64,000 nt of DNA from Eledone cirrhosa (lineage: Eukaryota). The stretch lies in NCBI GenBank assembly GCA_964016885.1, contig OZ024747.1:71548001-71612000 (forward strand), in the 5' to 3' direction. Shown piece by piece: positions 14,208 to 15,000 of this stretch (the first letter of the stretch is position 1; every line of letters begins with the position of its first letter). The notes under the pieces were generated by a model that had not been told where the DNA came from, did not search any database, and saw nothing but the letters and a program-made list of their open reading frames with translations. The translations under genes and the position numbers were made by a program.

Positions 14208-15000
14208 CGGGTAAAGAAAGCGCCGAAACATCTATGATCCGTGATAAGCAGCTGACGAAGGGCTACTCTTCTTTTCTTGTTTACGTCCCTATTACCTTCT
14301 TACACTTCGTTTTCAGTAACCACACATCGTATTTTTGTATTTATTGCTGCGACCTCTCCACTACCTGTATTGCTCGATTTGTTGTCCGGCCGGACTTATG
14401 TCCCACCAGGCTTTTACTCTCTCTCTCTCTCTCTCTCTCTCTCTCTCTCTCTCTCTCTCTCTCTCTCTCTCTCTCTCTTCCTTCCTACCCATCTGCTTGT
14501 TTTCGGCCTAGTCACACACGTGTCGTAAACCCCTTTTGGATTAACTCCATTTCCCTTCTCCTCCCTCTCTCTCTATCCCTCTTACTCACCCCCTCTAACT
14601 TCCGGTTTCTCCGTCTTTCTCTCTTTCTACCCTCACTTTGCTGAGATCGCCACAGAAAAACATTGCTCCGCAGTTATACGGCCACCGGGCTTTTACCCAT
14701 CGGTACAGTATAACTTATTCTATTTTCTCCTCTGTTACTTACATACATGTGCCGTTGTCCTGTGTTCCCCCTTCTATTCGGTATGTTTACTTCGTTTTTT
14801 CCTCTTTCCCTTTTTTTTCTTTCTTTCTCTCTCTTCACTATCACTTCTTTCCCTCATGGCCTTTTGATGTATAAAAGGCCACGGGCGCGCTATGGATCGA
14901 TGTCCTGTTTTAAGCCCCGAAACATCTATGATCCGTAGTAAACAGCTGACGAAGGGCTACTTTTCTTCTCTTGTTTACGTCCCTATTACCTTCTTACACT
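14208..15000 (+). mobile_element. Non-coding element with ~85-bp terminal direct repeats (14224-14307, 14917-15000), pLTR-like
   Basis: Repeat CCGAAACATCTATGATCCGT..CAGCTGACGAAGGGCTAC..CCTTCTTACACT at both ends; lies between (GT)n and (TA)n; carries HHR core boxes in reversed order. Confidence 0.6.

Follow-up and report, generated by a model that had tools for sequence, protein, structure and literature searches.

The window, as we call the 64-kb stretch of the Eledone cirrhosa genome (3.0 Gb) analysed here, carries a copy of a repeat family (family A) that probably encodes a self-cleaving, five-helix pseudoknotted hammerhead ribozyme of a non-autonomous Penelope-type retroelement. An earlier note on this DNA had proposed that the motif is a pseudoknotted hammerhead, not circularly permuted, and that its host is a Penelope-type element; both points are upheld. 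The conserved fold is well supported; judged from sequence, its wiring would be the new part, while its S-G-C strand order is already known.

The motif and its five helices

The window motif comprises the strings GATGTC^CTGTTT (14899-14910), GAAA (14919-14922), AAACAG (14940-14945) and CTGACGA (14946-14952), exactly as first read. The hammerhead core boxes CUGANGA, GAAA and UH are present at the site and near-invariant in 70 family copies, sampled as exact matches to a 20-mer downstream of the motif (0 in the control); DNA searches list 1154 first-look candidates, which are not copy numbers. The strands follow the order S-G-C and not the circular order of hammerhead types I-III, and an S-G-C descriptor run on the 64-kb window returned this site as its single match, bearing out the C-B-A order first read there. 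A five-helix descriptor matched 82 of 581 CUGANGA sites in 707,877 nt (window plus loci), and nothing in the reversed sequence or in any of 5 local shuffles; because the loci were fetched for carrying the motif, the 82 matches do not measure how frequent it is in the genome. With a relaxed S-G-C scan, 155 matches were found in 987,558 nt, and none in the reversed sequence or in 3 shuffles. The motif is thus genuine and not a chance arrangement. Rfam reported no hammerhead at 14200-15010 (2 weak unrelated matches) and none among the matches listed for the whole window (150 of 378), consistent with the claim that standard descriptors miss the motif. Its parts, with the cells paired among family copies, are as follows.

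14851-14854, + strand: helix IV 5′ strand CCCT, pairing with 14953-14956 (123/138 cells paired over 4 pairs)
14858-14880, + strand: hairpin V, 8-bp stem (274/295 cells paired; pair probability 1.0; missing from family F)
14884-14888, + strand: 5′ strand GGCGC of the family's stem II, upstream of the cleavage strand (191/213 cells paired; position kept in other families)
14890-14898, + strand: 5′ strand of the stem III extension, pairing with 14930-14938 (359/419 cells paired)
14899-14904, + strand: stem III 3′ strand and GUC triplet (231/246 cells paired; predicted cut after C14904)
14905-14910, + strand: stem I 3′ strand, pairing with 14940-14945 (287/303 cells; covaries across families)
14911-14913, + strand: TAA, a short linker between the outer ends of stems I and II like that of type SGC
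14914-14918, + strand: stem II 3′ strand, GCCCC in the window copy and GCGCC in most copies
14919-14926, + strand: GAAA core box and stem III 5′ strand
14927-14938, + strand: 3-nt bulge and 3′ strand of the stem III extension, with no kink-turn signature in the window's family
14940-14952, + strand: stem I 5′ strand and CUGACGA core box
14953-14956, + strand: helix IV 3′ strand AGGG, directly after A9

By analogy with other hammerheads, cleavage would be expected after C14904. Stems I, II (with its upstream partner) and III all abut the core in family A, stem II shows G10.1-C11.1 in 39 of 42 copies, and helix IV reaches 7 bp in one subfamily. Because the stem II partner lies upstream and helix IV follows CUGACGA, the A9-G10.1 link is split. 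Pairing counts within family A mostly mirror one consensus, with compensatory change at only one pair, in the stem III extension (A-T in 19 copies, G-C in 21).

The earlier note had closed three helices, placing stem II (GGGCT/AGCCC) directly after CUGACGA, and had made conservation of all three pairings a test. Its stems I and III stand and are conserved at the counts given above. Its stem II closes only via C14916, because the window copy alone has C there: the pair formed there is a G.G mismatch in 43 of 59 copies and closes in 6 of 59. Over the whole contiguous stem II, 178/291 cells pair, against 191/213 with the preferred upstream strand. A plain type SGC, with the strand after CUGACGA as stem II, gains from the validation of that type and from a contiguous helix that is the stronger one in the window copy (-8.5 versus -5.1 kcal/mol). 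It rests on a private base, however, and a typical copy reverses the order (-4.1 versus -8.4 kcal/mol). The contiguous helix shrinks to 0-1 bp in families B, C, D and F, spans only 0-3 bp in all 8 family representatives, and is missing, by eye, from the Naiad five-helix cases, so that we hold this reading to be very improbable. Plain type SGC with a bulged stem II was an early reading of ours and was dropped.

In the five-helix fold that we prefer, the motif begins at 14851, about 40 nt further upstream than first drawn, and includes two extra helices; the span 14885-14965, put forward for a cleavage assay, therefore omits them. The window copy is mismatched in the family's stem II and its ribozyme may be impaired. 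The second A strand read at 14246-14264 is present within an 89-nt, 93% direct repeat (14218-14306 versus 14912-15000), but that copy is without the cleavage strand and the splint and cannot supply the family fold.

Nested folding forms neither stem I nor stem II, and inclusion of the 3′ flank brings in a predicted competing hairpin over the CUGACGA strand. This hairpin (14938-14945 with 14971-14978) would bury the stem I strand and the CUGACGA core in longer transcripts, and the modelling makes it a possible off-switch.

Related families and stem III geometry

Other, unrelated repeat families of this genome were found incidentally or by pattern searches (60 matches, 0 in the control; 486 matches, 4 in the control). 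The helix order is shared and the letters differ among families A, B, C, D and F, with single copies representing G, I and J. Family A has CTGTTT/AAACAG as stem I and GGCGC/GCGCC as stem II; the corresponding strands are TGGTCT/AGATCA and TCGC/GCGA in family B and TCAACC/GGTTGA and GTGCA/TGYAC in family F, and stem I of family D is TAGTCT/AGACTA. Helix IV occurs as CCCT/AGGG, GTCC/GGAC and GTCCCA/TGGGAC. A stem II strand directly 3′ of CUGANGA, as type SGC has it, is possible only in the window copy. An upstream stem II of at least 4 bp was present in 73 of 87 distinct S-G-C matches and a contiguous one in 6 of 87; because the upstream search has more freedom, the fixed position of stem II across families outweighs this count. 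For helix IV of family A and stem II of family B, an automatic parser settled on different local registers, and it left the degenerate G and I consensus unparsed.

The family B unit is about 633 nt long and its best copies are 97-98% identical; among sequencing runs queried with it, no RNA run was listed as a carrier. A metagenome pattern scan returned 39 matches, which we take to be chance because none has stem I, and a scan of viral contigs returned 0.

In the proposed mechanism, the chain would run IV′, hairpin V, II, long III′, UH^, I′, short linker, II′, GAAA, III, I, CUGANGA and IV. Its knot-free part would be a rod in which an internal loop separates helix IV from about 14 bp of stem III, capped by a terminal loop with the cut site and GAAA. 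The terminal loop would kiss the internal loop, and stems I and II would form. A bend in stem III could aid this kiss in cis, through a kink-turn in several families and a 3-nt bulge in the window's family.

The kink-turn signature is a 3-nt bulge followed by G.A and A.G (PMC5061560). By sequence alone, it is present in 30 of 33 sequences of families B, C and D and in 10 of 17 of families F, G and I, and absent from family A (0/44), where a plain 3-nt bulge takes its place. Families B, C and F and two Octopus Naiads share the 3-nt bulge, G.A and A.G, followed by U.U or U.G. G at position 3n permits ion-induced folding, whereas box C/D turns need L7Ae (PMC4382518), and protein gating is therefore possible for the U.U forms. 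Our literature search turned up no kink-turn described in a hammerhead of a retrotransposon.

The same pairings could instead be active mainly as a head-to-tail kissing dimer in tandem transcripts, in which cutting needs two copies. Copies do occur in tandems of 2-3, and canonical hammerheads of Penelope-like elements (PLEs) have been proposed to act as dimers and were inactive as single motifs (PMC4209133). Stem III, read by eye, has 13 bp, a 7-nt bulge and 9 bp in the Acropora Naiads and 10 bp, 1 nt and 5 bp in one crustacean-section Naiad; on geometric grounds both look too straight or long for cis closure and fit trans better. Against a dimer, the validated SGC and CSG ribozymes cut co-transcriptionally as single motifs (PMC10085705), and the kink-turn signature with linkers of 1-3 nt in several lineages suggests selection for a U-turn in cis. 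The dimer stays alive because the window's family has a plain bulge and closure in cis looks out of reach for these two Naiad lineages, and we rate it as unlikely but worth retaining.

The element, its ends and a possible helper

The motif lies near the 3′ end of a repeat with the following layout.

14218-15000, + strand: non-coding Penelope-type repeat, a partial tandem of a 694-nt unit and a further 89 nt, flanked by (TG)n and (TA)n/(CA)n
14218-14306, + strand: 5′-truncated ribozyme copy without the cleavage strand and upstream splint, starting 8 nt past the predicted cut
15001-15163, no strand: (TA)n/(CA)n tract adjoining the 3′ end of the repeat, probably its insertion target

No Pfam match or long open reading frame was found inside 14218-15000. 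Features of this kind mark PLEs and Naiads, the latter with (TA)n as target (PMC8557442): the element shows partial tandems, inverted 5′ copies, a tail and a microsatellite target with no ORF, as expected of a non-autonomous Penelope-like element. Measured from the predicted cut, 3′ ends fall at +93 to +100 in 17 of 70 copies and at +126 to +150 in 42, in agreement with the 30-40-bp tail of PLEs, and a dinucleotide repeat adjoins 55 of 64 3′ ends. An inverted upstream copy accompanies 13 of 70, a count that includes both members of some inverted pairs. Elsewhere in the window, 19966-20480 belongs to a different inverted repeat family, likewise in (TA)n, in which a GAAA...GUC half-hammerhead is visible and CUGANGA is not.

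If the RNA is cut as proposed, the cut would set its 5′ end and allow circles, and a helper reverse transcriptase (RT) would copy the RNA into (TA)n. Roles of this kind, defining the template 5′ end or permitting circles, have been proposed for PLEs (PMC4209133) and retrozymes (bioRxiv 10.64898/2026.07.22.740005). The 5′ ends of the copies bear on this. Of 70 copies, 29 run more than 75 nt upstream of the predicted cut, through an intact site. Among the remaining 41 ends, 9 lie at +1 to +12 (p 0.008 for that fixed window, 0.28 for any window) and 8 at +5 to +9 (any-window p 0.009, the 5-nt window having been chosen after seeing the data). This cluster just past the predicted cut hints at cleavage in vivo, with TA microhomology as an alternative.

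The 29 extended copies could also suit a conserved structure that no longer cuts, serving as an RT-binding or packaging signal with core letters that are inherited relics, and Naiads do spread well without canonical hammerheads (PMC8557442). Yet CUGANGA, GAAA and UH stay fixed while all helices vary between families and phyla, and read-through is expected from circles or uncut precursors; a non-cutting structure is, in our judgement, improbable. A cutting ribozyme remains our preferred reading.

Because the element is non-coding, we class it only as most likely a Naiad passenger: the ORF of a Naiad, with N-terminal GIY-YIG, CxC, DKA and RT, is absent from it. No intact Naiad was found among the best 30 of 150 GIY-YIG matches or 20 longer stretches, all of which are elements with a C-terminal endonuclease (EN), and canonical type I hammerheads accompany 11 of those 20 stretches. 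A profile search listed 150 proteins, none of them long with an N-terminal EN, and an Octopus Naiad motif and one RT motif each had 0 matches in the genome. A second RT motif matched 17 times, against 0 in the control, indicating that decayed Naiad-type RT fragments exist in the genome. Five of the 17 were read, and all were decayed with no ribozyme motif within about 2.3 kb. Decayed fragments L291-L295 and L215 (reverse strand 4964-5572) are 70-86% alike, and in one case a (TA)n tract separates the fragment from a family-F-like motif about 320 nt upstream of it.

The window also holds thirteen canonical type I hammerhead-like motifs, at 2878(-), 3004(+), 3592(-), 13687(-), 13838(+), 21244(-), 27375(-), 28355(+), 29756(+), 32667(-), 32839(+), 45081(-) and 45224(+), which are likely the ends of canonical Penelope-like elements. 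Several form inverted pairs, for example with 173-nt arms at 13588-13760 and 13765-13937. Penelope-like ORF remnants with RT and C-terminal EN, assigned by eye where Pfam missed them, lie at 3802-5316(-) and 22813-24393(-), each upstream of a type I motif. LINE-type ORF2 sequence (endonuclease, RT, zf-RVT) and fragments lie at 7858-11319(-), 12358-13218(-) and 62610-63782(-).

Known hammerheads and the Naiads

Eckert et al. (2023, PMC10085705) treat the hammerhead as three blocks, S, G and C, and validated type SGC in vitro. The C-B-A order, which the earlier note set apart from the three circular permutations, had thus already been described as that type. Types SGC and CSG share an S-linker-G core and cut co-transcriptionally as single motifs in vitro; type SGC is known from metatranscriptomes only, with none in genomes of known organisms according to the available text (PMC10085705). 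The window motif has the S, G, C order with a short S-G linker. Its family resembles type SGC (HRIMA-1 and a variant) in the site-GAAA-CUGANGA order, the linker of about 3 nt between stems I and II, the complete core, a further helix that clamps the CUGANGA strand, and similar stem I and linker letters (PMC10085705). It differs in that type SGC has stem II directly after CUGANGA, whereas here stem II is upstream, with helix IV and hairpin V at A9-G10.1, and in residing in an animal retroelement rather than in metatranscriptome RNAs. Type CSG, represented by two metagenomic sequences (PMC10085705), shares with it the non-circular class and the S-linker-G half; in the window's family, unlike type CSG, the CUGANGA block is last and split.

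All six permutations assume that CUGANGA is contiguous with a stem II strand (PMC10085705), and on sequence grounds the split A9-G10.1 link fits none of them. In the available text of PMC10085705, PMC3088659, PMC10162972 and PMC7936874, no tested hammerhead places a helix between A9 and G10.1; hammerheads "containing additional helices" are mentioned in PMC13725137. Across the openly available literature that we searched, Eckert et al. are the sole source for type SGC, and Naiad hammerhead cores are nowhere assigned a structure. Animal non-LTR retrozymes, like this element, have a non-coding tandem unit with one hammerhead each and are proposed PLE passengers (bioRxiv 10.64898/2026.07.22.740005), but they and the PLE type I hammerheads (PMC4209133) are canonical or minimal and circular in order, whereas here a unit of about 630-750 nt carries a knotted fold.

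Canonical hammerheads are reported to be missing from Naiads, for which relaxed descriptors also failed; some Naiads are marked HHR_core or HHR_half_core, with no structure proposed in the available text (PMC8557442). Like them, the window element targets (TA)n, forms partial tandems, has inverted 5′ copies and a 30-40-bp tail and lacks a canonical hammerhead, and the five-helix motif recurs in Naiad 3′ regions; unlike Naiads, the element has no ORF (PMC8557442). We read the 54 Naiad consensus sequences of that source by eye, without computed pairings, from literal core searches covering CTGATGA places 9-62 of 62, CTGACGA 2-23 of 23, CTGAAGA 1-30 of 43, CTGAGGA 25 of 25 and CCGAAAC 28 of 30.

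The five-helix fold appeared complete in 9 of the 54: Amil, Aacu and Anas (near-identical Acropora), Obim and Ovul (Octopus), and four others in supplement parts 9, 12, 12 and 19, cnidarian to crustacean by file order. It appeared partial in Esco and in one Naiad of part 8; in another, from part 17, the order is related and stem II is a local hairpin. Type CSG fits seven nematode-section consensus sequences. No motif was recognised in 35 of the 54, all bivalves included, in these literal searches, where line breaks hide some matches. The suggestion that the window motif bears on lineages reported to lack hammerheads thus gains ground, since Naiad consensus sequences carry the fold; non-circular folds would explain much of that reported absence.

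Several arthropod-section Naiads (supplement parts 16-19 of PMC8557442) contain CCCC-CUGA(C/A)GA with flanking helices that we were unable to match to any hammerhead order. Separately, one type-SGC variant (PMC10085705) and the Acropora Naiads both have an AUCCUA strand before CUGAUGA and a similar UA linker, a likeness due to shared ancestry or to structural constraint.

We therefore consider it reasonably likely that many Naiads carry active non-circular hammerheads. Those of nematodes would be of type CSG, and those of cnidarians, cephalopods and crustaceans would have a wiring beyond the six permutations, in which a helix and an upstream splint replace the A9-G10.1 link; in some lineages cleavage would be gated by a kink-turn that folds the RNA into a closed cage and to which an L7Ae-family host protein may bind. 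The puzzle of Naiads without canonical hammerheads becomes directly testable. If this is correct, the CUGANGA block can be split, contrary to the working assumption of the six-permutation scheme, and non-circular hammerheads would move from anonymous metatranscriptome RNAs to named, many-copy animal retroelements.
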